A stretch of DNA of 64,000 nt, from the IMG/VR virus record IMGVR_UViG_2974655058_000001, positions 7,652 through 71,651 of that record; one strand, 5' to 3'. This document shows, piece after piece, positions 1-33,147 of this stretch (position 1 is the first letter of the stretch; every line of letters starts with the position of its first letter). The DNA comes from a virus (Duplodnaviria > Heunggongvirae > Uroviricota > Caudoviricetes > Demerecviridae). A program made the position numbers and the translations under genes. The notes under the pieces were generated by a model. That model worked only from the letters and a program-made list of their open reading frames with translations, had not been told where the DNA came from and did no database searches.

Positions 1-46
1 ATAACGGGGCGTTACTTTCGCCCCACTAACTAGGGGAGTAGTACAA

Positions 47-196
47 ATGGTTATTTTTCGGGCTATTTTAGCTGGTATCTTGGGCGCCATTTTATCATTG
101 TTTGCAATAGCTTTCGGTGTTCACGCCGTTATTATCGGCGCGGGTATCGCCGCATTTTCTTATCTGCTGGGCTGCATGACTGGTAAAGGAGAATAA
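47..196 (+). CDS. small hydrophobic membrane peptide (49 aa)
   Basis: ATG after GGGGAG RBS; single TM-like stretch; below the ORF-track cutoff. Confidence 0.4.
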   Translation: MVIFRAILAGILGAILSLFAIAFGVHAVIIGAGIAAFSYLLGCMTGKGE

Positions 197-198
197 AA

Positions 199-411
199 AT
201 GATCCGCAACGTTTCTCTTGCACGTTCGAAAGGCTTTAAGCTGGTGGATGTTAACACGTTCGAGCGGGAAGATTGTAAAATCGAATATGTAGCACGTAAC
301 AAAAATGCCTTTCGTGTTACCGAGAAAAAATTTGACAAGCGCGGCAACGTGATCGCTGAAACGGTTAAACACTTTGCCACCTTTTACGCTGCGTTTCGGG
401 GAGTGTTATAA
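199..411 (+). CDS. hypothetical protein (70 aa)
   Basis: AAGGAG RBS 8 nt upstream of the ATG; ORF track. Confidence 0.55.
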   Translation: MIRNVSLARSKGFKLVDVNTFEREDCKIEYVARNKNAFRVTEKKFDKRGNVIAETVKHFATFYAAFRGVL

Positions 412-412
412 A

Positions 413-757
413 ATGGTTATTTATGAAGGCAATCGCTTTGTTGCTAATTGCCGTCCGGCATTATTAGCAAACTATTTAAATCAGCTTTCCCCAGCTTATA
501 AGGGCGTTATTAATATTTATGAGGGCAAGGCGCATTATAAAATTAATGCGGTCGTTGCCCGTGAACTAGCGTTTCAATTTTTGACCTTTGCATCTTGTGA
601 TATTCAGGTTATGGGTGAAGCATTAATTGCAGAAAATGAAGATGATTTTATTAATATTTTCCGCAAGGTATGCACTGAGCGCCTGATAATGAAAGGCGCA
701 TATATTCAATCAACTGCGGAAAGTATTGAAACAGCTTTCAGAAAGGTGGCGCAATGA
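413..757 (+). CDS. hypothetical protein (alternative start at 374)
   Basis: internal ATG at 413 preceded by GGAG, abutting the stop of the upstream gene; longer ORF 374..757 in the track. Confidence 0.5.
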   Translation: MVIYEGNRFVANCRPALLANYLNQLSPAYKGVINIYEGKAHYKINAVVARELAFQFLTFASCDIQVMGEALIAENEDDFINIFRKVCTERLIMKGAYIQSTAESIETAFRKVAQ

Positions 758-912
758 AAAAGTTTTTAATAGCTGGCATGTTTCCGTTGTTGCCTTATGT
801 AATTTGCTGGGCTTTATACGCTCATGGTGCTAGTGTTCCCGGTGTGGCTTCATTTGGTGTATCGGCGGGCTTTCTAGCGGGACTATTGGCAAATGTATAC
901 TTACGCAAATAA
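754..912 (+). CDS. small membrane protein (52 aa)
   Basis: ATGA start/stop overlap with the upstream gene; hydrophobic. Confidence 0.4.
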   Translation: MKKFLIAGMFPLLPYVICWALYAHGASVPGVASFGVSAGFLAGLLANVYLRK

Positions 913-931
913 TTAATAACGGAGCGTTATT

Positions 932-1126
932 ATGAGCAATAAAATTGTTGTAACCAAAATCAGTACAATGGTTGATGTTTTTTACGTGCCCGATACGCCG
1001 GAAAACCGACAAGCGGTCGAGCGTGGCGAGTATGATAAAGTGATTTATGATCACGATGGCTATTATCAACATTTGGTGGATTCCTACGGGGAAGAGGAAA
1101 AAATCACGCACCGACTACCAGACTAA
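932..1126 (+). CDS. hypothetical protein (64 aa)
   Basis: GGAG RBS; followed by a terminator hairpin. Confidence 0.55.
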   Translation: MSNKIVVTKISTMVDVFYVPDTPENRQAVERGEYDKVIYDHDGYYQHLVDSYGEEEKITHRLPD

Positions 1127-1133
1127 TAATCAC

Positions 1134-1167
1134 GGGGCGCAACTATCAGGGAGTGCCCCCAATTTTC
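1134..1167 (+). terminator. rho-independent terminator closing the plus-strand gene block
   Basis: GGGGC...GCCCC stem followed by AATTTTC. Confidence 0.6.
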
Positions 1168-1188
1168 AAATGAGAATGATTCTCATTT
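1168..1188. repeat. perfect 21-bp palindrome AAATGAGAAT-G-ATTCTCATTT
   Basis: read directly from the sequence. Confidence 0.8.
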
Positions 1189-1382
1189 GACCGCGCCCGC
1201 GATGGTTAGCCTGCTAATGGTTAGGGTGTTACGTGTCGCCTTGTGTGATCGTTAGCTCGCTAACTAATTTCTAAGCCTCCTCCAATTTTACCCTTGTTTT
1301 AGTATCCCCACCAAAATTAAACGCGTTAGAATGCGATTCAGGACGTTTTAGGCCTATATTAGAATTATTCACTGCATAGGAA

Positions 1383-1402
1383 TACTGTATATTTATACAG
1401 TG
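1383..1402. promoter_or_regulatory. LexA (SOS) box-like site TACTGTATATTTATACAGTG
   Basis: CTGT-N8-ACAG with an AT-rich centre, near-perfect match to the E. coli SOS-box consensus. Confidence 0.55.
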
Positions 1403-1414
1403 GAATAACCTGGG

Positions 1415-1432
1415 GATAAGTCTGTGGATAAC
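1415..1432. promoter_or_regulatory. 18-bp direct repeat copy 1 containing a consensus DnaA box TGTGGATAA
   Basis: GATAAGTCTGTGGATAAC; the reverse complement contains TTATCCACA. Confidence 0.55.
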
Positions 1433-1475
1433 GCTTCAAAATGGCTAGGATTTTGTCAAGTCAAATCGTGCTGTT

Positions 1476-1493
1476 GATAAGTCTGTGGATAAC
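1476..1493. promoter_or_regulatory. 18-bp direct repeat copy 2 with a DnaA box TGTGGATAA, plus a 1-mismatch box TGTTGATAA upstream
   Basis: identical 18-mer 61 bp downstream of copy 1. Confidence 0.55.
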
Positions 1494-1499
1494 TTAAAT

Positions 1500-1712
1500 A
1501 ACAGTGTTTCTCACTTCCATTTTTAAATGCGAATCATTATCATTTGCATTTCACTGTCTAACTGATAATCATTCCACTTTTTAAATGAGAATCATTTCAC
1601 TTCTTGAATAGTTCTCATTCCCTTTCTTAAATGCAAATCATTCCGCTTTTTAAATGAGAATAATTATCATTCGCATTCCGCTTTTTAAATGATAATGCTT
1701 CTCATTCAAAGT
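1500..1712. repeat. about five degenerate tandem copies of the AT-rich motif TTTTTAAATGAGAATCATT (Fur-box-like GAGAAT..ATTATC cores)
   Basis: visible periodic repeats of 35-45 bp. Confidence 0.6.
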
Positions 1713-1713
1713 C

Positions 1714-1740
1714 GCAGGGCAATTGCCCTGCGCTTTTGTG
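1714..1740 (+). terminator. hairpin GCAGGGC-AATT-GCCCTGC followed by GCTTTTGTG
   Basis: GC stem followed by a T-run. Confidence 0.5.
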
Positions 1741-1959
1741 CAAATCCGACATTGCTCCACGGGTGTTACGTGCGGGCATGTATGTGCGAATCCGACAATT
1801 TTTGGTAGTGTGCAAATCCGACCCGAAAAATTTTTATAGTGTGCAAATCCGACAATGAATTTTCCCAAAAACTCCAGCAATCACGAACTGCGTTCGAATC
1901 CTGTGGAATTAGCTAGAATATGTGCAAATCCGACATGTGTTGAGATGTGCGAATCCGAC
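1738..1959. repeat. iteron cluster: six copies of GTGC(A/G)AATCCGAC
   Basis: copies at 1738, 1784, 1810, 1841, 1922 and 1947. Confidence 0.8.
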
Positions 1960-2289
1960 AAGATTTTTATGACTTCGATGAGAGGGTGTGTGATTGTATA
2001 GGTTTGAGGAAAAGATGAGAGAGCGAGAGAAATTTTGGTACTAGAAGGGTGTGGGCGCAGGATTGGTGCGGAGCACCTGATTTGCGGGGATTTTGGGGAA
2101 GAGTTGAGATAATTTGGGGAAATTTGAGATAGGTGCAGAAAAAGTAAAATTTTATTAGCAAAACGGGGCAAAATAGCTTGACAAGTGAAAATTCTTGTGG
2201 CTCTAAAAACTCAGGCAATCATGGGCCTTCGGCCCGAAATAATGCTGCTATTTTCAGGAGAGTAAGAGTTCCTAAAAACTTAGGCGTTT

Positions 2290-2337
2290 GTGCAAATCCG
2301 ACCAGTTTTTAAACTCCTGTCAGTGTGCAAATCCGAC
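2290..2337. repeat. two further GTGCAAATCCGAC iterons
   Basis: copies at 2290 and 2325. Confidence 0.8.
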
Positions 2338-2339
2338 AG

Positions 2340-2800
2340 TAATTTCTGGAAATGTGTTTTCAAAAAATGTCTCCTAGAAATAACCGCCCTCCCTATAACC
2401 GCCCTGTATTAACCGCCTATTGCTAGAGTTTCTAGGAATATGAAAACCGCCTGAGTTGACTAGAGAAACAGATTTAAAGTTTAATGTAAACTCTAGAGTT
2501 AGTGCTCAACTATTCCTAGAAACTTAGGAGTCTAGAAGAAAGTGTTGTGCCATCCTAGCAGATGAGCGGCAACAGGTGTATCATCTTGAACACAGATATT
2601 GCCATTAAAAATATTTAAATAATATAAAGAAAAAGAGACCCCCAATTTCATGAGAGTCTCTCCTGGGGGGCGCGTGATTAATTACGTGAGTACTCATGCC
2701 GTCATACCGCTGTTGCTAGGCCGCAAGCTATACGAGACATTCGTGTAATAATCATCGCCCCTAGAGTTAATCAACTAGAGTAGTTGTTAATCTATGAGAT
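2340..2800. repeat. region with four (T)AACCGCC repeats and more than ten CTAGA/CTAGAG motifs
   Basis: AACCGCC at about 2383, 2398, 2412 and 2446; CTAG-containing hexamers recur. Confidence 0.5.
2633..2680. terminator. bidirectional hairpin CCCCCA...TGGGGGG
   Basis: inverted repeat with flanking A/T runs. Confidence 0.4.
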
Positions 2801-2848
2801 TATTATAACATGTTTGGGTATGAGAATGCAAGAACTTTTTGTTAACTT

Positions 2849-3562
2849 TTATTCCTCCTTCTTGGATTTGAGTTTGATACCTAAGGATGCGAAGTAGATA
2901 TAAGTTGCTAAATAGGAAGCAGTGGATCCTGTATCATCGTAATCCATAGTTCCGCGAGCTGCTCTAGTATACTCAGGAGCGTAGTTTAATATCGTGTAAC
3001 TTGGCATTCCTAGCGACTTACATAGTTCTTTAAATGTATCCTCATATTTATGGCACATGAAATGCACAGCATTTTCTAGGGGCGTTAACTCTAGATCTTT
3101 ATGTAGAGCTACAGTCAAACTCGCTAACATCGTGCCAATCCCACGATAAACTTCATCTTTAACTAGAGTTGGTTTCTCTTTTTCTAGTGGAGGAAGGTGG
3201 GCATATTTGCCGTGTTTGAAAGGAATAAGATCTTCACTAGCTAATGCTTCTTTAAATGATGCTTCCTTAAATCTTGGGAGATCTTCATCGATTAGGATAT
3301 GAATAGCATTAGAAGAGAAACCCTTTGCTTCAGGATCTAAAGCTTTCAACGCTTTATTCACCTCTACATATGAGCCTGACCAAACAACTTGTTTTGCATC
3401 ACGATCATATTTGATCTTACCTTTATCCCACCTAGCAGGATAATGATCTCCTAAAAACATTACTGCATATTTTTCTTCATCAGTTAGCTGGGAAAGACTC
3501 TTTTGTGTAGCACCACGTGCTAACTGGATGAGACGTTTTAATTTTTCAGCTTCTTTAATCAT
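2849..3562 (-). CDS. hypothetical protein (237 aa)
   Basis: ORF track; the first minus-strand early gene. Confidence 0.6.
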   Translation of the reverse strand: MIKEAEKLKRLIQLARGATQKSLSQLTDEEKYAVMFLGDHYPARWDKGKIKYDRDAKQVVWSGSYVEVNKALKALDPEAKGFSSNAIHILIDEDLPRFKEASFKEALASEDLIPFKHGKYAHLPPLEKEKPTLVKDEVYRGIGTMLASLTVALHKDLELTPLENAVHFMCHKYEDTFKELCKSLGMPSYTILNYAPEYTRAARGTMDYDDTGSTASYLATYIYFASLGIKLKSKKEE

Positions 3563-3906
3563 ATATCAGACGCTTGCTCCCCTGTTTCTTTCTTTTCTGG
3601 CTTAGGTTTTCTTGCAATCTCTGCAAAGGTTCCTTTAGTTCTTTCTTTAGCTGGAAGATCTACTTTATACCATAGGATTCCTAATTGTTGTGCTAAGTGA
3701 GCTATATTCTTTGGTGTTATACTTGGAATATCTTCCCTATCAGAAACTTTAGAAATTATATCAAATAACTCTCCTATTTTTGGCTTATTAGTAGTTATTA
3801 GAATATATTCTAATGTTTCTATTTCTACATTTTCATCTTTATAGTAAAGACTAAGAGTAATTAAATCGTCACCAGCAGAAGTTATTTTTGTTTTACCAAA
3901 TATCAT
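3559..3906 (-). CDS. hypothetical protein
   Basis: ORF track; ATGA overlap with the downstream gene. Confidence 0.55.
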   Translation of the reverse strand: MIFGKTKITSAGDDLITLSLYYKDENVEIETLEYILITTNKPKIGELFDIISKVSDREDIPSITPKNIAHLAQQLGILWYKVDLPAKERTKGTFAEIARKPKPEKKETGEQASDI

Positions 3907-3964
3907 TAACTGCCTCTCTTATCTTCATTAATAGCAGCTCCCAATGCTTCCATAATTGCATCTT

Positions 3965-4519
3965 CTAGACTTCCACTCTTACAGGATTGTTCATAGGAAT
4001 AGTATAAACAGACTTATTAAAAACTCCGGAGTCCACAGGCGCTACGCTTTTCATGTCAGATTCAAAAGCTTCTTGGGTGTGTTTCAACTGTACAGAAGGC
4101 CCATAATCTTCACCAACTCGATATGAGGAATTATTTTCTATAACGCCACCGCATGGAACATTGTGCAAATCCGACGTTATTTTAGGACTGTTCCACATTG
4201 TAATTGGCCCTGACTGCCACGGATCTCGAATAGTCACAGGGGTACTAGGACGGTTAACCTCAGTCTTCACAAGTTTATAACCAGCATCGATTAGTGTATT
4301 AATTATATTATCAGCTGGGATGCGAGCTTTGCCAAAGATCTTACGAGCGTTGTTGAGCCTACCTTCAAAATCTTTACATGCTTTAATATTAGTGTGTGCA
4401 AAGGTTAGCTTCATAGATTTGAACTGTACAGTGGCAGTTAAATCTTTAAAGCTATAATCCCACGTATTTAGTTCATGATCGGGTACTACTTGAATAGATT
4501 GTTGTGCATATAAAGTCAT
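3965..4519 (-). CDS. hypothetical protein (184 aa)
   Basis: ORF track. Confidence 0.55.
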   Translation of the reverse strand: MTLYAQQSIQVVPDHELNTWDYSFKDLTATVQFKSMKLTFAHTNIKACKDFEGRLNNARKIFGKARIPADNIINTLIDAGYKLVKTEVNRPSTPVTIRDPWQSGPITMWNSPKITSDLHNVPCGGVIENNSSYRVGEDYGPSVQLKHTQEAFESDMKSVAPVDSGVFNKSVYTIPMNNPVRVEV

Positions 4520-4704
4520 TACTTATTCTCCAGTTTGTCTAGCAGTTTATGAGCTGCTAGATTATATTGTTTAAGCTCACGGTTAAGGATTTGGTTCTCA
4601 CACTTTAACTCTAAATTCTTATTATTAAGAATATTGCAGATTAGTAGAAGTGCTAGTATAACTAGTAGCGAACCTACAAGCATTAAAAGAAAAAGAGTTT
4701 CCAT
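4519..4704 (-). CDS. small membrane protein with one TM and a coiled coil
   Basis: N-terminal TM helix followed by a heptad-like segment. Confidence 0.5.
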   Translation of the reverse strand: METLFLLMLVGSLLVILALLLICNILNNKNLELKCENQILNRELKQYNLAAHKLLDKLENK

Positions 4705-4937
4705 TATTTAATTCCCATGTAACGTTTGAGATACGTGATGAAGTCTTCTGTTGTATGTTCTATGCTACCCTGAACCACAAACAACTTTAAAGCCTCACGC
4801 TGTAATTTAAGAGCAGCTAACTCACCACGTAATTTTGTTAGATCTTCCGCTAGTTCTCTAGCTCTGCGCATAATAGCAAATGATACTAATGTTACAATAA
4901 ATAACATAACTGCTAAAATAATTACTATGATTTCCAT
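4704..4937 (-). CDS. small membrane protein with one TM and a coiled coil
   Basis: TM helix then RARELAEDLTKLRGELAALKLQ coiled coil. Confidence 0.5.
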   Translation of the reverse strand: MEIIVIILAVMLFIVTLVSFAIMRRARELAEDLTKLRGELAALKLQREALKLFVVQGSIEHTTEDFITYLKRYMGIK

Positions 4938-5215
4938 ATTAACATCCAGCTCTTATCGTATACTTGGGCATGTTCTACTAATTCATTTATCGATATAGAA
5001 TTATCGTAGATACCCTCTAGTAAACGTTTTCTGTCAAATTTATCAACCAAATACTCTGTGTCATTTATTACTACCCTATACAGCTCTGGAACTAAGGGGT
5101 GTTTGTTTGGTATTGGGCGACTACCTAAGTCTATTTCATTATACCCCCACGTTGTTTTAAATAGTTTATTACTAAGTGCTGCTAGTGGGTTTGACCATAC
5201 AATATAGCTACTCAC
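4925..5215 (-). CDS. hypothetical protein
   Basis: ORF track. Confidence 0.5.
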   Translation of the reverse strand: MSSYIVWSNPLAALSNKLFKTTWGYNEIDLGSRPIPNKHPLVPELYRVVINDTEYLVDKFDRKRLLEGIYDNSISINELVEHAQVYDKSWMLIWKS

Positions 5216-5654
5216 TATTTATCTCCATTCTTAGCTTTGAAAACTTATTATACCAAACTATATGATTATCGTCAATTACAAATTTATGGTAACATGCTGG
5301 TACGGTATAAGTTCCATAATCCGTGACACGCTGCACAACCTTGTGTGCACACAGTCGACAACCATGCCCTTCTAAATGAGATCTAGCAGTCTGCCAGTAA
5401 TAACCATCATGGTCTGGACAATAGATCTCGACTTGCTGTTGCATTGTCTTATAATTTACACGCTCATACCCAAAGAAAGCCCCGTGAGCTGCAATGGCTT
5501 TCTTGATAAATATAAGGTTTAGCGCCTCTTGTTGAAAATCGGGATGTAGCTGTTTAATCTTAGTTCTATTAATAGATCCATCCGATTTGATGAACCTATT
5601 TATTGGAAAGTTGTTAGCTTCCTCGATTAATAGTTCATTTACTTTCTCTCTCAT
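5208..5654 (-). CDS. hypothetical protein with a Cys/His cluster (possible Zn-finger or HNH-like)
   Basis: CPDHDG...H...GHGCRLCAH; start trimmed to an internal ATG that abuts the stop of the upstream gene. Confidence 0.45.
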   Translation of the reverse strand: MREKVNELLIEEANNFPINRFIKSDGSINRTKIKQLHPDFQQEALNLIFIKKAIAAHGAFFGYERVNYKTMQQQVEIYCPDHDGYYWQTARSHLEGHGCRLCAHKVVQRVTDYGTYTVPACYHKFVIDDNHIVWYNKFSKLRMEINSE

Positions 5655-5655
5655 A

Positions 5656-5859
5656 TTAGATACTCTCACAACTAAGGTAGAAACATTCGTAAGCATCCCC
5701 AGTAAACTCTTTATCCTGTAGTAAACACTTAGCTTGGTCTTCCGGTACTCCAGCATCTAATAATTGTTGTTTACTTGGCTTTTCAGCGAATACTTTTACA
5801 AAATACTCACCATCCTGATTATATTCATTTATATCTCTAGTAAGGACATATACTTGCAT
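5656..5859 (-). CDS. hypothetical small protein
   Basis: ORF track; tightly coupled to the downstream gene. Confidence 0.45.
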   Translation of the reverse strand: MQVYVLTRDINEYNQDGEYFVKVFAEKPSKQQLLDAGVPEDQAKCLLQDKEFTGDAYECFYLSCESI

Positions 5860-5880
5860 TTGAAGTTCCTTGAAAACATA

Positions 5881-5912
5881 AAAGGCCAGAACAATTAAGT
5901 CCTGGCCTCCTA
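5881..5912 (-). terminator. rho-independent terminator (minus strand)
   Basis: GGCCAGG...CTGGCC stem followed by TTTTATGTTTTC on the minus strand. Confidence 0.55.
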
Positions 5913-5915
5913 AAA

Positions 5916-6287
5916 TTAATGAAGTTGTTTACCACTTCTTAACATAGTGGCCGTTTCCATAAGACCTAGCGTAGTATCACGCTTATTGATCTGTTTACCA
6001 AGTTCATCAGTACGTTTACTGATGTAAGCATTAATAGCCATATTCATAGCTGTAGCGAGATCTTCTTTGGTTATCTCTTCATCGTCTAAAGCTAATTTAG
6101 CCAAAGAATCAAATGTGCTAGAGAGTCCTATAAGATCTGAGGTTTCTCCAGCCAAAATAGGATTAATATTATCTACTGTTACTTCTAGCATGGAGTTAAC
6201 AATATCTTCACCGTCTATTAGACCAAATTCAATATTACTCTCCCACTCCTTCATCTGTTCCAGCAATGGATTTTTCTTTTCTGTCAT
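5916..6287 (-). CDS. hypothetical protein (longer ORF extends to 6353)
   Basis: ORF track; internal start chosen to reduce overlap. Confidence 0.4.
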   Translation of the reverse strand: MTEKKNPLLEQMKEWESNIEFGLIDGEDIVNSMLEVTVDNINPILAGETSDLIGLSSTFDSLAKLALDDEEITKEDLATAMNMAINAYISKRTDELGKQINKRDTTLGLMETATMLRSGKQLH

Positions 6288-6696
6288 GGTAGAGGTTTCC
6301 TGTATCTGTGGGTAAGAAGGATGATTGCGTTTTAGGTGGATGTTGCTTAGCAATCCAGTTAAGAATCAGCACGCGACTAGGAACAATATCGGTGTTATAC
6401 CAAAAATCGTGAACCCATTGACGAGCATCTTCAAACTTACCAAATTTATACGCTTTCTTAAACAATTCAAATCCAAAACAATCTGGTGTAAAGTCTACTT
6501 CGCGATATTGAATTACTTTAGAACCTGTTAAGTCTTGAATCGCTGCATTAATTTCTGTATGTGAGAACTTTGTTTCATGAAACTTATTAAAGAATCGGTA
6601 ATTGAAGCGTCCATTCGTTTCGACAAATAACTGGATGAAGAGATCGTTAAATTGGTTATCAAACCAGTAATTCTGTAGTTGTTGTAGTGCTGTCAT
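6235..6696 (-). CDS. hypothetical protein (153 aa)
   Basis: ORF track. Confidence 0.55.
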   Translation of the reverse strand: MTALQQLQNYWFDNQFNDLFIQLFVETNGRFNYRFFNKFHETKFSHTEINAAIQDLTGSKVIQYREVDFTPDCFGFELFKKAYKFGKFEDARQWVHDFWYNTDIVPSRVLILNWIAKQHPPKTQSSFLPTDTGNLYHDRKEKSIAGTDEGVGE

Positions 6697-6893
6697 TTAC
6701 GAACCCCGTTAATTGCCATAATGATGCCTTCGTACATAAAAGGAAGTAACCCAGAAGTATAGAATATATTTTCCGTTATTCCTAGATGTCGAAAAAGTAT
6801 ATTAAACAATGCTGTTAGAAATACAACCTGAGGCAGTAATACAAAATACTCAGTTACAATCTTTGGTGCCTGATAAACAAGACGTTTTATCAT
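6693..6893 (-). CDS. small membrane protein
   Basis: two hydrophobic segments. Confidence 0.45.
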   Translation of the reverse strand: MIKRLVYQAPKIVTEYFVLLPQVVFLTALFNILFRHLGITENIFYTSGLLPFMYEGIIMAINGVRK

Positions 6894-6992
6894 TGTTTTT
6901 AAGTCTCCTTATTACTTTGGCCTGCTCCACAATAATGAAAACTGCGAGCACTAATAGTGCTATTAGTCCCGCAGTAACTGGTACTAGATCAA

Positions 6993-7319
6993 TCATGGGA
7001 GACGCCATACATAATTAGCTGTCTGTAGAACTTCGGAAACACCATCATGTTGCATCACTACAGACGTTGGAGAGTAACTATTCGCCAGTTCTGTACGAAC
7101 CATCTCACGTTCTTCTCCAGTTTCAATATTTTTAACAACCACCTTCATTTTGAGAGGTGTCAGTTCAGAGAGCGGTTTCCAAGAGTCCTCAATTTCAATT
7201 CCTACCTTTTTCTCGATTACCATGAGAACTTCTAGTGTGTCATCTGGAATACTAATATTATTATTTACAAACTGTAACAGCTCATGCAAAGTATTTAATT
7301 CGTTAAAATTAAGTTTCAT
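6993..7319 (-). CDS. hypothetical protein
   Basis: ORF track; start trimmed to the MKLNF ATG just after the upstream stop. Confidence 0.5.
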   Translation of the reverse strand: MKLNFNELNTLHELLQFVNNNISIPDDTLEVLMVIEKKVGIEIEDSWKPLSELTPLKMKVVVKNIETGEEREMVRTELANSYSPTSVVMQHDGVSEVLQTANYVWRLP

Positions 7320-7554
7320 CTTTAAGAATATCCTCAACCATATCACAGGACTGTTGCAATTCGTCAGCAATGCGCTTAATATCGGTCTTTGTTACTTTAC
7401 CAATTAACATCACCAGTAACATAGAAAAGATAATAAGTGGAACTGGAATAACAAATAATGCTACCTTAGCTACATTCTTTGGTGCCCATGTGTGGTACTT
7501 AGTAACTAGAACTCCCACCACGATTAGATAAAATGCTAGAATAAACATCATCAT
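7309..7554 (-). CDS. membrane protein (2 TM)
   Basis: hydrophobic helices. Confidence 0.5.
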   Translation of the reverse strand: MMMFILAFYLIVVGVLVTKYHTWAPKNVAKVALFVIPVPLIIFSMLLVMLIGKVTKTDIKRIADELQQSCDMVEDILKDET

Positions 7555-7832
7555 TTTTTAATCTCCGTGATTATCTGTGTACGCATTACTTTAGCGGGTA
7601 ATTTATTATTACCAATTATTGCCTCGATATTATTTAATTTTTCTTTAAGAATATCTGAGCGTCTTTGTGCTAATTCAATATCTTGCTCTTGCTCTAGCAA
7701 GCGGTGGTGTAGCCCATCATTAGTAATGAGCATACTTTCCATGTTTTTCCGTGCATTCACAATCCCAATAACTCCACCAATCGCTACTAGCGTAGTAAGA
7801 ATTAGTAACCCAATAAGAATTTCTATAATCAT
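7551..7832 (-). CDS. membrane protein (TM plus coiled coil)
   Basis: N-terminal TM helix. Confidence 0.5.
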   Translation of the reverse strand: MIIEILIGLLILTTLVAIGGVIGIVNARKNMESMLITNDGLHHRLLEQEQDIELAQRRSDILKEKLNNIEAIIGNNKLPAKVMRTQIITEIKK

Positions 7833-8365
7833 TTATTTAGTTCCTCTAAAGTAGGAAAGAGTTTTGTATGATCAAAAGTTTCTACAACAGCGTTAGACCC
7901 ATGTAGCTCTAAACGAAGTTTATTAGCTCTTTGAACCACTAATTCTAGATCTAAGAAATCAAAATACCCACCATGTACTAACTTTTTGTATGAATCTACA
8001 ACCCTTACTTCCCATTTTTGCTTTTGTTTATGCCAAAAGATTCCCAAATACCCTGATTTGCTCCTTGCTGTTCTATTTCTAGAATTTTCTTGGTTGTTAG
8101 ATTCTCTAAGGTTAGCCCACCTATTATCACTCCGTATACGATTTACGTGGTCTATTACTTCGGGAATATAACCTTCCATATAGAGGAAGGCTAGTCGATG
8201 TGCTTTGTAACCTACTTTATCTACTCTTATCTCTAGATACCCAGTCTTTCTTAGACAGCCAGCAATACTACCAGCTTTTTGATTACCTATACTTACTAAT
8301 CTAATAAACTCGCCCGTTTCCGGGCGGTATTCCAATAATTCTTTTAATCTTTCTTGTGTTATCAT
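7829..8365 (-). CDS. HNH homing endonuclease (AP2/HNH_3-type), paralog 1
   Basis: shares the MITQERLKEL..PETGEF N-terminus and the H..N..H core with three other ORFs. Confidence 0.75.
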   Translation of the reverse strand: MITQERLKELLEYRPETGEFIRLVSIGNQKAGSIAGCLRKTGYLEIRVDKVGYKAHRLAFLYMEGYIPEVIDHVNRIRSDNRWANLRESNNQENSRNRTARSKSGYLGIFWHKQKQKWEVRVVDSYKKLVHGGYFDFLDLELVVQRANKLRLELHGSNAVVETFDHTKLFPTLEELNK

Positions 8366-22297: not shown

Positions 22298-22525
22298 AAT
22301 TGAAAACTCGCAGGGTTAGCGAAACCATCCTCAATTAGCATGTTCTAGAATACTAATCAAGTTATCTCCTATTGCACGCAGCTCAAGACGAGTACGAATT
22401 TTCAATTGTGGCGGCTCTCAGAAACTCTTCTATTCTAGCCTCAGAAGCTTACCCCGAACGCATGTCGGGAAAGTCTTTCCAAGCGCATCAAATAGCACCG
22501 TTACACTTTGAGCCATTGATGTATC

Positions 22526-22610
22526 AAGGAACAGAAGGAGTTGAACCTTCACGAGATAGACCATTTATCTCAACCGCTTTTAAGGTATATTTCTAGGAGT
22601 GGATGTTCCT
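22526..22610 (-). ncRNA. tRNA-like RNA (85 nt, complementary AGGAACA/TGTTCCT termini, T-arm GAAGGTTCAACTCCTTC, no clear anticodon arm)
   Basis: T-arm and acceptor pairing are present but the D and anticodon arms are not canonical. Confidence 0.3.
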
Positions 22611-22857
22611 AGTAAACCTATTCGGCAGTCCCGTCTACCAATTCCGGCATATTCCAAGAATTTTTATAAACCAGCAGAAGCCTCATTTAAGGCATCAACA
22701 ATAGCTTCACGTTGGGTCATTCCATACCCAGTGGAATCTAGGTGTGGCAAATAAGCCATCCATCCCTTATCTGTTTCATGAAGGCATGCTTTAAATTTTT
22801 TACCGTCCTTCATTGTTACAGTAACTGTTTTGCTCATAATGATTCCTTATAGTTAAT

Positions 22858-23318: not shown

Positions 23319-23691
23319 AAATTCTTTAGTTTACTAAGGCTATTGGCTCGGCGTAACTACAGCACCTTCACTTCGAGCGGAAGGAACCGCGTCATCTCGC
23401 AAACCCGATACACTATTCAGTTGCCACTGAATCTAGTGGACTAATCTAGAACCTCTCCCAAATAGTAGGGATCGTGCTTTTTGGCAGCCAGTCCTAGGTC
23501 GAGCTAATACCTTAGTGAACTATGATGAGGATTTCTCCTCATCAATTTATATAAATATTATATCAAGAAATTAAGCATTAAGCAACTGCGTTTTTGAAAT
23601 TTCTTGGACTTGGTACTCGGTGATAGAATCTAACTATCGCTACCGCCGTGTAAAGACGGGGTTCTCTCATTAAACTAACCGAGCAAAAATT

Positions 23692-24233: not shown

Positions 24234-24407
24234 AAACTTCCTTAATAGAATGGACTTTTAAGTAAGAATGATTAATCCCAAACTCCGCCATTACTTCTTT
24301 TTCATCTTTTCCATAATGTGCAAGTAAGGATCTTGAGGTATTATTACCTAAACGTTTGTCACTTACTACTAATCGAAATACTTTCATTTCGAAATCCTCT
24401 ATTAAAA

Positions 24408-24485
24408 TGGAAGCGGGTGCAGGAATCGAACCTACCTCTTTCTAGCTTATGAGACTAGCGATCTCTACCAGAGATCTAACCCGCA
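24408..24485 (-). tRNA. tRNA (anticodon CAT) with a 1:72 mismatch (initiator-like feature)
   Basis: loop CTCATAA; T1 is unpaired with T72. Confidence 0.6.
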
Positions 24486-24491
24486 ATTGTT

Positions 24492-24569
24492 TGGTCTCCG
24501 TGGGAGGATTTGAACCCCCGACCCTATCGCCCCAAACGAAACGCTCTGGCCAAACTGAGCTACACGGAG
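24492..24569 (-). tRNA. tRNA-Pro (TGG)
   Basis: acceptor CTCCGTG/CACGGAG, loop TTTGGGG. Confidence 0.65.
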
Positions 24570-24942
24570 AATATTATTTCTTCAACCACAACAAAGATAA
24601 GCCCAGCATACTAAAGCCGCTAACTAATCCGATACATTTTTCTTCTATAGTAAAAGTATCTAGATTAAATGCTGTTATAGCTATGGGCATACACCATAAT
24701 GCCATAAAAACTTGAGCTATCTTGTGTTTCATTTTGCTTTCCTTCTCTTCACTTTATAAAATATATTATAAAGATAATTAAGCTGAATAGCAAATGAATT
24801 TTTAATAAATTTACTTATTGTGTAGGCTACCTGGAGGCTACCAACCCCACGGCTGACAAAGAAGTTTGCGAGACCTCTCTTAAATGTCAGAATAGACCCA
24901 CCGATCTATCGGAACCTACATAATAAGTAGACTTTATAGTGT

Positions 24943-25063
24943 CATTCTAGACAGGACTCGAACCTGTTATCACTTGTGCGGACTTACGAGAACCATTCTT
25001 TCACTCGAATCGAACGAGCTTCTGCCCTCGCCAAGCTGGTTTCCCCATCAACCACGCTAGAAT
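24943..25063 (-). ncRNA. 121-nt tRNA-like stable RNA candidate (perfect ATTCTAG/CTAGAAT termini, two T-arm-like hairpins)
   Basis: termini pair over 7 bp like an acceptor stem; internal T-arms ACAGGTTCGAGTCCTGT and GCTCGTTCGATTCGAGT; too long and irregular for a tRNA. Confidence 0.4.
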
Positions 25064-25185
25064 GTTTGATTGTTTTCAGTGCAAGAGTCCGAGTCTTGGA
25101 CACGACCGCTTCGCAAGTACATAGGCAGCTTATCATGAGTCAGCACTTCCGAATTGCTAGCTCCGTGTTCTGCACTGAAATTCTG

Positions 25186-25542
25186 TTAGTTTAACCGTAA
25201 AGTATTATCTACTTCACCATTAATTGTTCGGCAATCCTCTGGGATTGCTGGGGTGGCCTTGTATTCCCACCACTCAGCACCATCATATTCCCCACGTTCT
25301 AGCCAAGTTCCATCGGCAAACCATACATTACCATAAAGTAATTGTCCACCGTATCCAGAATCATACTCAAAGTCTAGATTATTAAGAAAATCCTCAATAT
25401 CTTCTTCTGTATAGCCTAAAGGTAATACCCAGACTTTTTTATCCCCATAATACCCAAATTCTATTTTAATACACTTAACTTCAGAATTAGTATTTTTTAA
25501 GGCAAGTAACAACTCTTCTTTAGCATTACGCATATTACGCAT
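25186..25542 (-). CDS. hypothetical protein
   Basis: ORF track. Confidence 0.5.
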   Translation of the reverse strand: MRNMRNAKEELLLALKNTNSEVKCIKIEFGYYGDKKVWVLPLGYTEEDIEDFLNNLDFEYDSGYGGQLLYGNVWFADGTWLERGEYDGAEWWEYKATPAIPEDCRTINGEVDNTLRLN

Positions 25543-25567
25543 AGTATATTCTCATACTGAATTAATT

Positions 25568-25644
25568 TGGCGCGACCGATGGGATTTGAACCCACATTCT
25601 CTCCCGTGACAGGGGAGTACCATTACCAAGCCAGCCCCGGTCGC
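25568..25644 (-). tRNA. tRNA-Asp (GTC)
   Basis: anticodon stem CTCCC/GGGAG, loop CTGTCAC. Confidence 0.75.
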
Positions 25645-25653
25645 ATGATCTGT

Positions 25654-25839
25654 TTATTCAGCTTTGAGTTTTTCAATAGCTGCATTAAGTTCTTTAAGAA
25701 ACTCTTTTCGTACATTAAGACGATTGAGACTTACTAGTATATCATGTTTAAGTTCTTCTATGTATTTCTTCTCAACTTCAATATTGTTGATAGTGCTATC
25801 ACGATGAACTTCTAGTTGCGCAATCACATTCTTGGACAT
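25654..25839 (-). CDS. small coiled-coil protein
   Basis: ORF track. Confidence 0.45.
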   Translation of the reverse strand: MSKNVIAQLEVHRDSTINNIEVEKKYIEELKHDILVSLNRLNVRKEFLKELNAAIEKLKAE

Positions 25840-25941
25840 GCTTGTTTCCTCAGTTATTAATGAAAATGGTATCTGTGGCTGAATTCGATGTCAGCAATGA
25901 TAGCTGGTTGGCTACCGGTTTACTTAACTCTACACAGAATT

Positions 25942-28783: not shown

Positions 28784-28861
28784 TGGTGGCTCCCCGAGGA
28801 TTCGAACCTACGTACCTTCCGGTTATGAGCCGGGTGCTCATACCATATGAGCTTGAGAACC
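28784..28861 (-). tRNA. tRNA (anticodon CAT), third CAT species
   Basis: acceptor GGTTCTC/GGGAGCC with G-U pairs, loop CTCATAA. Confidence 0.6.
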
Positions 28862-32573: not shown

Positions 32574-33075
32574 TTTAAGTATTTTTAAGAACTCTCGTAA
32601 AAACTCTTAAAAATACAGACGATACCGGGAGAGTCATAAGTCTCACTCATTAAGTATTTCAAGACAAAATACAGTAACGTCTATTATTTTCCAGTTTAAG
32701 TCAGGGTGACTTAGTGGTTATGTCCTGCGGTATATTGAGGACTCGGTTAGGCTTGGGGTCATGACTTCCCGCCTTTTGCTGCTACTCAACAGGAGTTATC
32801 GCGAATTACCTGTGCTATTGTGCACCATTAGTGACATCTCTCATGTCAGCATTTCCCACTTTGTGGATAGCTTGAAAAACTACTCCGATATGGAGAAAGA
32901 ACTTCACTATCCTAGAATACCTTCTAAAGTTCTTCTTTAGCCTGGACATAGTTAAATCGTAATAAAACTATTCAGCAGACTGGTTGGTTAGTCTGGAACC
33001 AACTACCGCGTGGTTTAGGCAGTGCGCAACTAACCTCGGAAGCTTTTACGTTAAAAGCATCAGTTATCCAGTTCT

Positions 33076-33147
33076 TACCGACCGTAGGATTCGAACCTAC
33101 ATCTTCCACCAGTTACGGCTTGATAATACCAATTATACTAGGACGGC
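33076..33147 (-). pseudogene. degenerate tRNA-like sequence (canonical T-arm and acceptor-like termini, no anticodon arm, no CCA)
   Basis: GTAGGTTCGAATCCTAC T-arm; GCCGTCC/GGTCGGT termini with one mismatch. Confidence 0.35.

Follow-up and report, generated by a model that had tools for sequence, protein, structure and literature searches.

The 64,000-nucleotide (nt) stretch of DNA analysed here (positions 7,652 to 71,651 of IMG/VR record IMGVR_UViG_2974655058_000001, a virus of the family Demerecviridae; hereafter, the window) bears on its minus strand a 121-nt RNA gene whose 5′ end lies at 25063 and 3′ end at 24943. Judged by sequence, it is the Salmonella phage VSe12 ortholog of RNA2, a gene of the transfer RNA (tRNA) region of phages T5 and BF23. 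The RNA combines a tRNA body with a 55-nt module that occupies the place of the 7-nt anticodon loop. It can be stated with high confidence that this is a real, functional, structured RNA gene orthologous to RNA2. The existence of the RNA2 gene is already known from public annotation, which gives no structure, family or function for it. As far as could be established, what is new here is the covariation-supported secondary structure, the module in place of the anticodon loop, and a family that extends beyond the T5-like phages.

A tRNA body with a module in place of the anticodon loop

The body has a class I tRNA shape and, as predicted from its sequence, should adopt the normal L-form. With canonical tRNA (RF00005), RNA2 shares a 7-bp acceptor stem, a D-arm with GG, a 5-bp stem in the anticodon position (helix S), a variable loop of 4–5 nt, a T-arm with the GTTCRANYC consensus, a discriminator, and a place in a tRNA array; canonical numbering applies from the anticodon-position stem onward, as far as the discriminator. 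All full-length members of the family have GG in their D-loop, and the variable loop, which ranges from 2 to 5 nt, measures 4–5 nt in most members, corresponding to the class I geometry. In the outer T-arm, the equivalents of G53, U54, U55, A58, and C61 are invariant in 26/26 aligned members. The window copy carries C8 and U14 at the positions where tRNAs have U8 and A14.

RNA2 differs from canonical tRNA in its length (121 nt from the acceptor 5′ end to the discriminator) and in the lack of both a 7-nt anticodon loop and an encoded CCA. Its gene ends with G73-ACA, whereas CCA is encoded by all 22 tRNA genes found by ARAGORN in the window. Because of the missing anticodon loop and the G73-ACA end, RNA2 is not a decoding tRNA. 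Moreover, acceptor stems and discriminators differ between clades; therefore, no amino-acid identity is conserved. In the 22 tRNA genes, the encoded CCA is usually followed by AAUU or AAAU, RNA2 being the exception.

The module is built, starting from its base, of an internal loop GCGA/RYA, the 4-bp helix PJ (GGGY/RUCC), an asymmetric (C)GUAA loop on the 3′ strand, the 3–4-bp helix Px, a 10-nt A-rich bulge on the 3′ side ending with AAUGG, and an inner stem of 5–6 bp capped by a T-loop. As a whole, it forms an arm of about 18 bp with a second T-loop at the tip. In the inner T-arm, the equivalents of G53, U54, U55, C56, A58, and C61 are invariant in 26/26 members. The second joining segment (J2) has the family consensus (C)GUAA-NUCC-RYA, where UAA, UCC, and the last A are invariant. 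AAUGG closes the bulge in 26/26 aligned members, the figure of only ≥90% for its columns reflecting extra bases after the motif in two hand-offset rows (L009 and L385).

When the clades are compared, the body sequences are wholly different, while the module sequences hardly change, even across phages of unrelated hosts. If the module is swapped in silico for a 7-nt loop, ARAGORN calls a tRNA in 21 of 23 members. Px and the inner T-stem always add up to 9 bp, as either 4 + 5 or 3 + 6, and the total length is 118–124 nt in 22/23 full-length members. From this constancy, the spacing of the two T-loop “elbows” seems to be important.

Compensatory changes support seven helices

The single-sequence folding energy of the element is not significant (z = −1.0), so the case for the structure rests on comparative data. 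The alignment used comprises 26 distinct members; it was anchored on motifs, with indels N-padded so that MAFFT kept the layout, and it replaced a MAFFT/covariance-model alignment in which the register of the inner T-arm was wrong. In this alignment, 94.4% of the cells assigned to helices are paired, compared with 59.9 ± 1.2% in shuffled controls (0/500 as high) and 34–47% when the partner strand is slid by 1–3 columns. Both sides have changed in 30 of 35 pairs distributed over seven helices (Table 1), and covariation scores 0.82, a value that falls to 0.19 in the shuffled controls and to about 0.1 with a slid partner strand.

In relatives, the acceptor stem appears as GGGUACU/GGUACCC, UACUGAC/GUCAGUA, GGGGCGA/UCGCUCC, AGGUUAG/CUAACCU, and others; Px as GAGA/UCUC, AAGA/UCUU, AUG/CAU, and GUC/GAC; and the inner T-stem as CUGG/CCAG, ACGG/CCGU, UUGG/CCAA, and CAAGG/CCUUG. 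Three of the four PJ pairs, two G-C and one G-U, are practically invariant, and the fourth (Y:R) pair is C:G in 8, U:A in 10, and U:U in 8 members, but never C:A or U:G.

Table 1. Helices of RNA2 in the 26-member alignment
Helix	Pairs	Pairs changed on both sides	Paired cells
Acceptor	7	7	95%
D-stem	4	4	92%
S (anticodon-stem position)	5	5	99%
PJ	4	1	87.5%
Px	4	4	88%
Inner T-stem	5–6	5	96%
Outer T-stem	5	4	98.5%

Several further structural candidates were considered and rejected. A pseudoknot between AUGG and CCRY would engage the CC that already belongs to PJ, whose Y:R pair covaries. Neither conserved GG is likely, on steric grounds, to interact with the inner T-loop, both lying at the base of the Px/T-stem stack. 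An extension of helix S by two G-C pairs, which emerged from constrained folding, has no covariation support. Finally, a mini-ORF (open reading frame) starting at the AUG of the bulge varies in both frame and length among members.

These results bear on a preliminary description of the element made from the sequence of the window. It had proposed that the ends of the RNA are complementary, and indeed AUUCUAG (25063–25057) pairs perfectly with CUAGAAU (24950–24944), a helix that is conserved in relatives with all 7 of its pairs changed on both sides. Two T-arm hairpins had been recognized as well, and both, the inner at 25019–25003 and the outer at 24967–24951, carry the consensus; the length of 121 nt agrees precisely with the segment that the full-length covariance model returns (see below). 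The description also denied that an anticodon arm could be drawn, which is right for the 7-nt anticodon loop, as this is missing, but wrong for the stem, since GCUUG/CAAGU is present and covaries.

From 25063 to 24943, the RNA reads AUUCUAG CG UGGU UGAUGGGGAA ACCA GCUUG GCGA GGGC AGAA GCUCG UUCGAUU CGAGU and, directly onward, GAAAGAAUGG UUCU CGUAA GUCC GCA CAAGU GAUA ACAGG UUCGAGU CCUGU CUAGAAU G. The parts are listed in Table 2.

Table 2. Parts of the RNA2 gene and their positions in the window
Part	nt of RNA2	Window position	Strand	Remark
Acceptor stem, 5′ strand AUUCUAG	1–7	25057–25063	−	pairs with 24944–24950
D-arm, stem UGGU/ACCA, loop UGAUGGGGAA containing GG	10–27	25037–25054	−	stem covaries
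Helix S, 5′ strand GCUUG (anticodon-stem position)	28–32	25032–25036	−	pairs with 24972–24976
J1, unpaired GCGA, then GGGC (PJ 5′ strand)	33–40	25024–25031	−	GGGY pairs with RUCC at 24980–24983
Px, 5′ strand AGAA	41–44	25020–25023	−	pairs with UUCU at 24989–24992
Inner T-arm GCUCG-UUCGAUU-CGAGU	45–61	25003–25019	−	stem covaries, T-loop positions invariant
3′-side bulge GAAAGAAUGG, A-rich, AAUGG at end	62–71	24993–25002	−	motif kept in family
Px, 3′ strand UUCU	72–75	24989–24992	−	covaries with AGAA
J2, CGUAA (unpaired), GUCC (PJ 3′ strand), GCA (unpaired)	76–87	24977–24988	−	motif
Helix S, 3′ strand CAAGU	88–92	24972–24976	−	covaries
Variable loop GAUA	93–96	24968–24971	−	length in family
Outer T-arm ACAGG-UUCGAGU-CCUGU	97–113	24951–24967	−	covaries
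Acceptor stem, 3′ strand CUAGAAU, and discriminator G	114–121	24943–24950	−	CUAGAAU, nt 114–120 (24950–24944); G121 (24943), discriminator position; ACA next, not CCA

RNA2 in T5-like phages and beyond

Salmonella phage VSe12, which is T5-like and belongs to Demerecviridae, matches this region of the window at 100% identity. In the BF23 tRNA-region record AJ604530, the blastn match falls on the misc_RNA feature rna2, described as “RNA2: tRNA-like RNA with unknown functions”, and the element is 97% identical; in T5 st0 (AY692264), misc_RNA rna2 is annotated at 32962–33086. The annotation of both records comes from the Ksenzenko laboratory. This is the same gene on the same strand and at the same position in the tRNA region, the annotated T5/BF23 feature (125 nt) being longer than the window element by 1 nt at the 5′ end and 3 nt at the 3′ end. 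A description of RNA2 in papers was not found in literature searches on T5 stable or tRNA-like RNAs. The full-length covariance model R2 recovers exactly 24943–25063 (−) with 117.5 bits, and the copies of the window, T5, and BF23 score 115–120 bits with it.

Standard tools pass over the gene. In Rfam searches, the element is not matched either at the gathering thresholds over the whole window or at E ≤ 10 within 24570–25570, and ARAGORN does not call it in the window, whether introns are allowed or not. Several GenBank T5-like genomes carry instead a coding sequence for a “hypothetical protein” across the element (e.g., hits H46, H47, H54, and H56), and in the window two short mechanically derived ORFs, 24976–25194 (+) and 24984–25136 (−), overlap the RNA gene. 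Because covariation acts at the RNA level, protein calls across RNA2 are probably spurious.

A 141-nt query around the element matches 479 records of cultured phages, 418 of them over ≥80% of its length. Identity of ≥99% is reached in 124/479 records for this query, compared with 2/425 for the surrounding 961 nt, and the homology shared with other T5-like phages often has an edge only a few nt away from one of the element ends. Beyond the closest relatives, blastn from the element leads to Klebsiella phages of Sugarlandvirus, Serratia phage Slocum, and T4-like Acinetobacter phages (Acj9, AB1I1M-1, and a phage-133-like contig), always within tRNA clusters. Covariance models assign to the family members from Tequintavirus, Epseptimavirus, Sugarlandvirus, Serratia phage Slocum, T4-like Acinetobacter phages, and at least 20 uncultured contigs. 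Screening of pattern-scan loci from IMG/VR and metagenome contigs with the core model R1 added about 20 divergent members with 41–70 bits. With R2, the family yields 39 hits at 53–120 bits against no more than 43 bits for ordinary tRNAs; that ordinary tRNAs obtain any score shows the tRNA-like nature of the body. When divergent members serve as blastn queries, L051 matches only Klebsiella Sugarlandvirus among cultured phages, and L229 and L084 match no cultured phage.

In the tRNA region of T4, neither model finds a family member, tRNAs aside. No copy is present in 5,426 complete E. coli genomes, and a loose pattern scan of bacterial genomes gave chance matches only, with none of 100 screened loci (of 120 drawn) scoring. 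The member L335 (6023–6138) sits among 47 tRNA genes within 8 kb (1–8283) of the metagenome contig Ga0308158_10000004 (1.46 Mb); the array could be bacterial, or it could belong to a mobile element or phage of very large size. In addition, relatives with lower scores of 24–39 bits (L325 at 1482–1589, L329, L350, L237, L318, and L374) may be more distant branches of the family; these relatives keep AAUGG…GUAANUCCRYA and the outer T-arm, with the inner T-arm altered or missing or the bulge shortened.

RNA2 as a cassette-like part of the tRNA array

All 22 ARAGORN tRNA genes of the window lie on the minus strand, where the order around the element is tRNA-Asp, a T5p065-like ORF (25186–25542), RNA2, RNAIV, a P13a-like promoter site, and tRNA-Pro. 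Most family members likewise belong to tRNA arrays and share the strand of the tRNAs; in several loci, 4–10 nt separate them from the adjacent tRNAs. In Epseptimavirus, RNA2 is located between tRNA-Lys(CUU) and tRNA-Gly(GCC), with spacers of 7 and 9 nt. Because of this placement and of the homology edges at the element ends, RNA2 resembles one more cassette of the mosaic tRNA array.

Simple scans revealed no promoter-like site between the upstream ORF and RNA2 and no intrinsic terminator within 24400–25700. Two weak promoter-like matches (9/12) are located within the upstream ORF and within RNA2 itself, and the P13a-like sigma-70 site TTGCTA-17-TATAAT (10/12; 24793–24765 (−)) lies downstream of RNAIV and upstream of tRNA-Pro. 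A conserved neighbouring protein gene was sought across at least 20 clades, and none is shared.

Other small RNA genes of T5 and BF23 also have orthologs on the minus strand of the window. The RNAIV ortholog (24819–24921), 95% identical to T5/BF23, begins 21 nt past the 3′ end of RNA2; in BF23 and Epseptimavirus, tRNA-Gly(GCC) is present between RNA2 and the RNAIV region, while it is absent from the window and T5. The remaining orthologs are rnaIII (22299–22404), rnaI (22409–22514), rna1 (22515–22658), rna2H (23338–23509), and rna3 (25867–25939), none of which has an Rfam match in the window. Among them, RNA1 (T5 rna1, L011 2505–2648; window 22515–22658) contains GGUUGAGAUAAAUGGUCU, which resembles the Sugarlandvirus RNA2 module minus the inner T-arm (18 contiguous matches in a local alignment), with a T-arm coming after. 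By this resemblance, RNA1 may be a degenerate relative of the RNA2 module; it does not score with the family covariance models. Two further segments, 28787–28861 and 33076–33147 (−), are scored as tRNA by Rfam at the gathering level (40.3 and 35.5 bits), ARAGORN being silent on both.

Relation to other tRNA-like RNAs

The tRNA-like domain of transfer-messenger RNA (tmRNA) and YrlA are well-known cases in which a tRNA-like part is joined via the helix in the anticodon-stem position to another functional module. RNA2 shares with both of them the design of a tRNA-like part plus a different module. Unlike tmRNA, it bears neither pseudoknots nor a tag ORF; no ORF is conserved, and the window copy has U3-A70 rather than G3:U70. 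An identity with tmRNA was rejected, there being no ARAGORN tmRNA call or Rfam match. The YrlA termini form the Ro-binding stem, whereas those of RNA2 form the acceptor stem; an identity with YrlA or other Y RNAs was also rejected, as there is no Rfam match at E ≤ 10, no Ro60-binding helix, and no Rsr gene nearby.

The species 1 and 2 RNAs of T4 (rnaC and rnaD) are likewise small stable RNAs of a phage tRNA cluster with unknown function, and rnaC ends in a T-arm. They were rejected as homologs: neither family model matches, and no similarity can be seen by eye. A man-made parallel is provided by the engineered “tRNA scaffold”, where a foreign RNA is put into the tRNA anticodon stem for stable expression. 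RNA2 has the same topology, with cargo in place of the anticodon loop, but it is natural, and its cargo is conserved and carries its own T-loop.

As for the acceptor end, CCA is encoded after the discriminator in the Sugarlandvirus copies (Spivey and L386), and a 3′ CCA can be read in L351 if the acceptor stem is taken as 6 bp. The clade of L229, L333, L352, and L319 has a tRNA-Ala-like acceptor, GGGGCG(A/G)/UCGCUCC, with G3:U70 and A73. In principle, RNAs of this clade could be alanylated as tmRNA is; the other clades do not have G3:U70/A73.

What RNA2 might be and do

On balance, the reading we favour, if by a modest degree, is that RNA2 is a stable, non-decoding tRNA-shaped RNA in which a scaffold carries an effector module. 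RNA2 would be transcribed together with the early tRNA cluster, in line with the promoter and terminator scans, and excised by host tRNA-maturation enzymes, with RNase P acting at the 5′ end, followed by 3′ trimming and possibly CCA addition. Both this excision by host enzymes and the stability of the product would be due to the tRNA body, which would thus serve as a processing and stability scaffold and also provide entry to tRNA-binding sites. The module would be the working part that binds a conserved host component handling tRNAs. A universal host target, rather than a phage partner, is argued by the absence of a shared neighbouring protein gene taken together with the near-invariance of the module among phages whose hosts are unrelated. 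Possible partners include an enzyme or nuclease directed at anticodons (a defence nuclease among them), RNase P, and the ribosome; for such a partner, RNA2 might serve as a tRNA mimic or decoy, with no anticodon loop in which it could be decoded or cleaved. Any particular target is proposed with much less confidence than the general picture.

Several points weigh against this picture. The alignment is hand-curated: the registers of the acceptor, D, and S helices were picked to maximize pairing, and part of the Px offsets was placed manually, so the support for these four helices is somewhat inflated; both T-arms and PJ were anchored on motifs only. The minimum free energy fold (−34.5 kcal/mol) differs from the covariation-supported one (−26.2 kcal/mol) in the central arm. 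The central-arm register of the former, CGAGGGC/GUUCUCG, was rejected since it fails in Spivey, L229, and L084, while the Px and PJ registers covary. Further, the three T4-like Acinetobacter copies lack the D-arm and have an irregular terminal stem; what they retain is the module together with helix S and the outer T-arm, and a short strand containing GG stands where the D-arm would be. A full tRNA body is therefore not strictly needed. In GenBank notes, RNA2 is called “tRNA-like” and its neighbours RNAI, RNAIII, and RNAIV “stable RNA”; given this wording, a discrete RNA2 band may never have been seen, and transcript, end-mapping, or phenotype data on RNA2 were not found in literature searches. 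Finally, the data do not separate a decoy from any other role of the module.

An unlikely alternative is that RNA2 is only a cis-acting tRNA-like signal for processing or stability of the polycistronic early transcript, following the ORF at 25186–25542 and playing no role in trans. Such a role would fit the position of RNA2 between this ORF and RNAIV and the outcome of the promoter and terminator scans described above, and tRNA-like shapes are known to recruit RNase P. But for this purpose the tRNA body alone would do, leaving the near-invariant module, the fixed helix lengths, and the second T-loop unexplained; besides, elsewhere RNA2 lies between tRNAs, which are processing sites themselves.

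It is quite improbable that the acceptor end is the active part, i.e., that RNA2 is aminoacylated and enters the ribosome or another aminoacyl-tRNA pathway in a tmRNA-like manner. The acceptor/T-arm minihelix is intact in nearly all members, and the CCA of Spivey, L386, and L351, as well as the tRNA-Ala-like end of the L229 clade, would be in line with this proposal. Most members, including the window copy, nevertheless have no encoded CCA, and acceptor identity elements are not kept across clades. Nor is there an mRNA-like ORF, as the frames starting from the bulge AUG differ in length and phase, or a tmRNA call by ARAGORN.

The preliminary description had also suggested a tRNA with an insertion. 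As to architecture this is right, but it misleads on function: conservation is highest within the insert, and the RNA is left with no anticodon loop that could be used. In its explicit form, the idea would be that 45–48 nt are removed between positions 31 and 32 to give a 7-nt loop NUCCRYA with U33 and the anticodon CCG (Arg) or CCA (Trp), the module being a new small intervening sequence that pairs with the anticodon. Helices between intron and anticodon are known in eukaryotic pre-tRNAs. In its intron mode, ARAGORN interprets 10 of 23 members in this manner, assigning them Arg-CCG or Trp-CCA and an intron of 45–48 nt (70 nt in L385), and the would-be U33 and A38 are invariant. It is a curious coincidence that tRNA-Arg and tRNA-Trp are the only two tRNAs that BF23 has been reported to lack (PMC10644984). 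We regard an interrupted tRNA as very unlikely for several reasons. Position 37, where tRNAs carry a purine, is a pyrimidine in 26/26 members, positions 32–35 are held in PJ, and the “intron” is far more conserved than the “exons”. Discriminators (G, A, U, and C) and acceptor stems vary inside one “anticodon” class, the L335 array already has three normal tRNA-Trp(CCA) genes, and the window copy is not called by ARAGORN even in the intron mode (-i). An insert of 45–48 nt is too short for a group I intron, lying below the size of its core, and there is no Rfam intron match; we know of no endonuclease/ligase route in bacteria by which such an insert might be spliced. By inspection, PJ is flanked by a 4–5-nt bulge on the 3′ side and an internal loop of 3–4/3 nt, which differs from the canonical 3-4-3 bulge-helix-bulge.

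The last alternative is that RNA2 has no function and is either a tRNA pseudogene, decayed or fused, or a scar of recombination. This alternative could draw on the two T-arms, the invisibility to tRNA finders, and the mosaic T5-like tRNA regions rich in homing endonucleases, but it is contradicted already by covariation and hardly tenable, as compensatory changes keep every one of the seven helices across distant phage families at a near-constant length, and the element is more conserved than its flanks. The suggestion of a fused pseudogene in the preliminary description thus falls, while its other proposal, a processed stable small RNA, agrees with the misc_RNA annotation in T5 and BF23 and fits the strong conservation, expression being presumed from sequence.

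Implications

The “tRNA-like” RNAs of phage tRNA clusters have stood unexplained in GenBank for about 20 years. For RNA2, it can now be stated that it is not a relic but a covariation-supported family present in T5-like phages, T4-like Acinetobacter phages, and many uncultured phages. Its gene has been missed by tRNA finders and Rfam and mis-annotated as a hypothetical protein in several genome records. With the proposed working module delimited and the nucleotides that do not vary in it identified (AAUGG, GUAA, UCCRYA, and the inner T-loop), “function unknown” turns into an experimentally testable matter. For the tRNA-scaffold design of RNA engineering, RNA2 also offers a precedent from nature.

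Phage tRNA clusters counter bacterial defences that target tRNAs, such as PARIS and retrons (PMC11464382, PMC11555353). The T5n deletion of the tRNA region studied in PMC11555353 leaves rna2 outside. In light of tRNA-directed immunity, RNA2 is a well-defined candidate for experimental work. It is conceivable, though we would stop short of calling it probable, that RNA2 founds a widespread, undescribed class of tRNA-scaffold phage effector RNAs that would serve host takeover or anti-defence by acting on a universal host machine.

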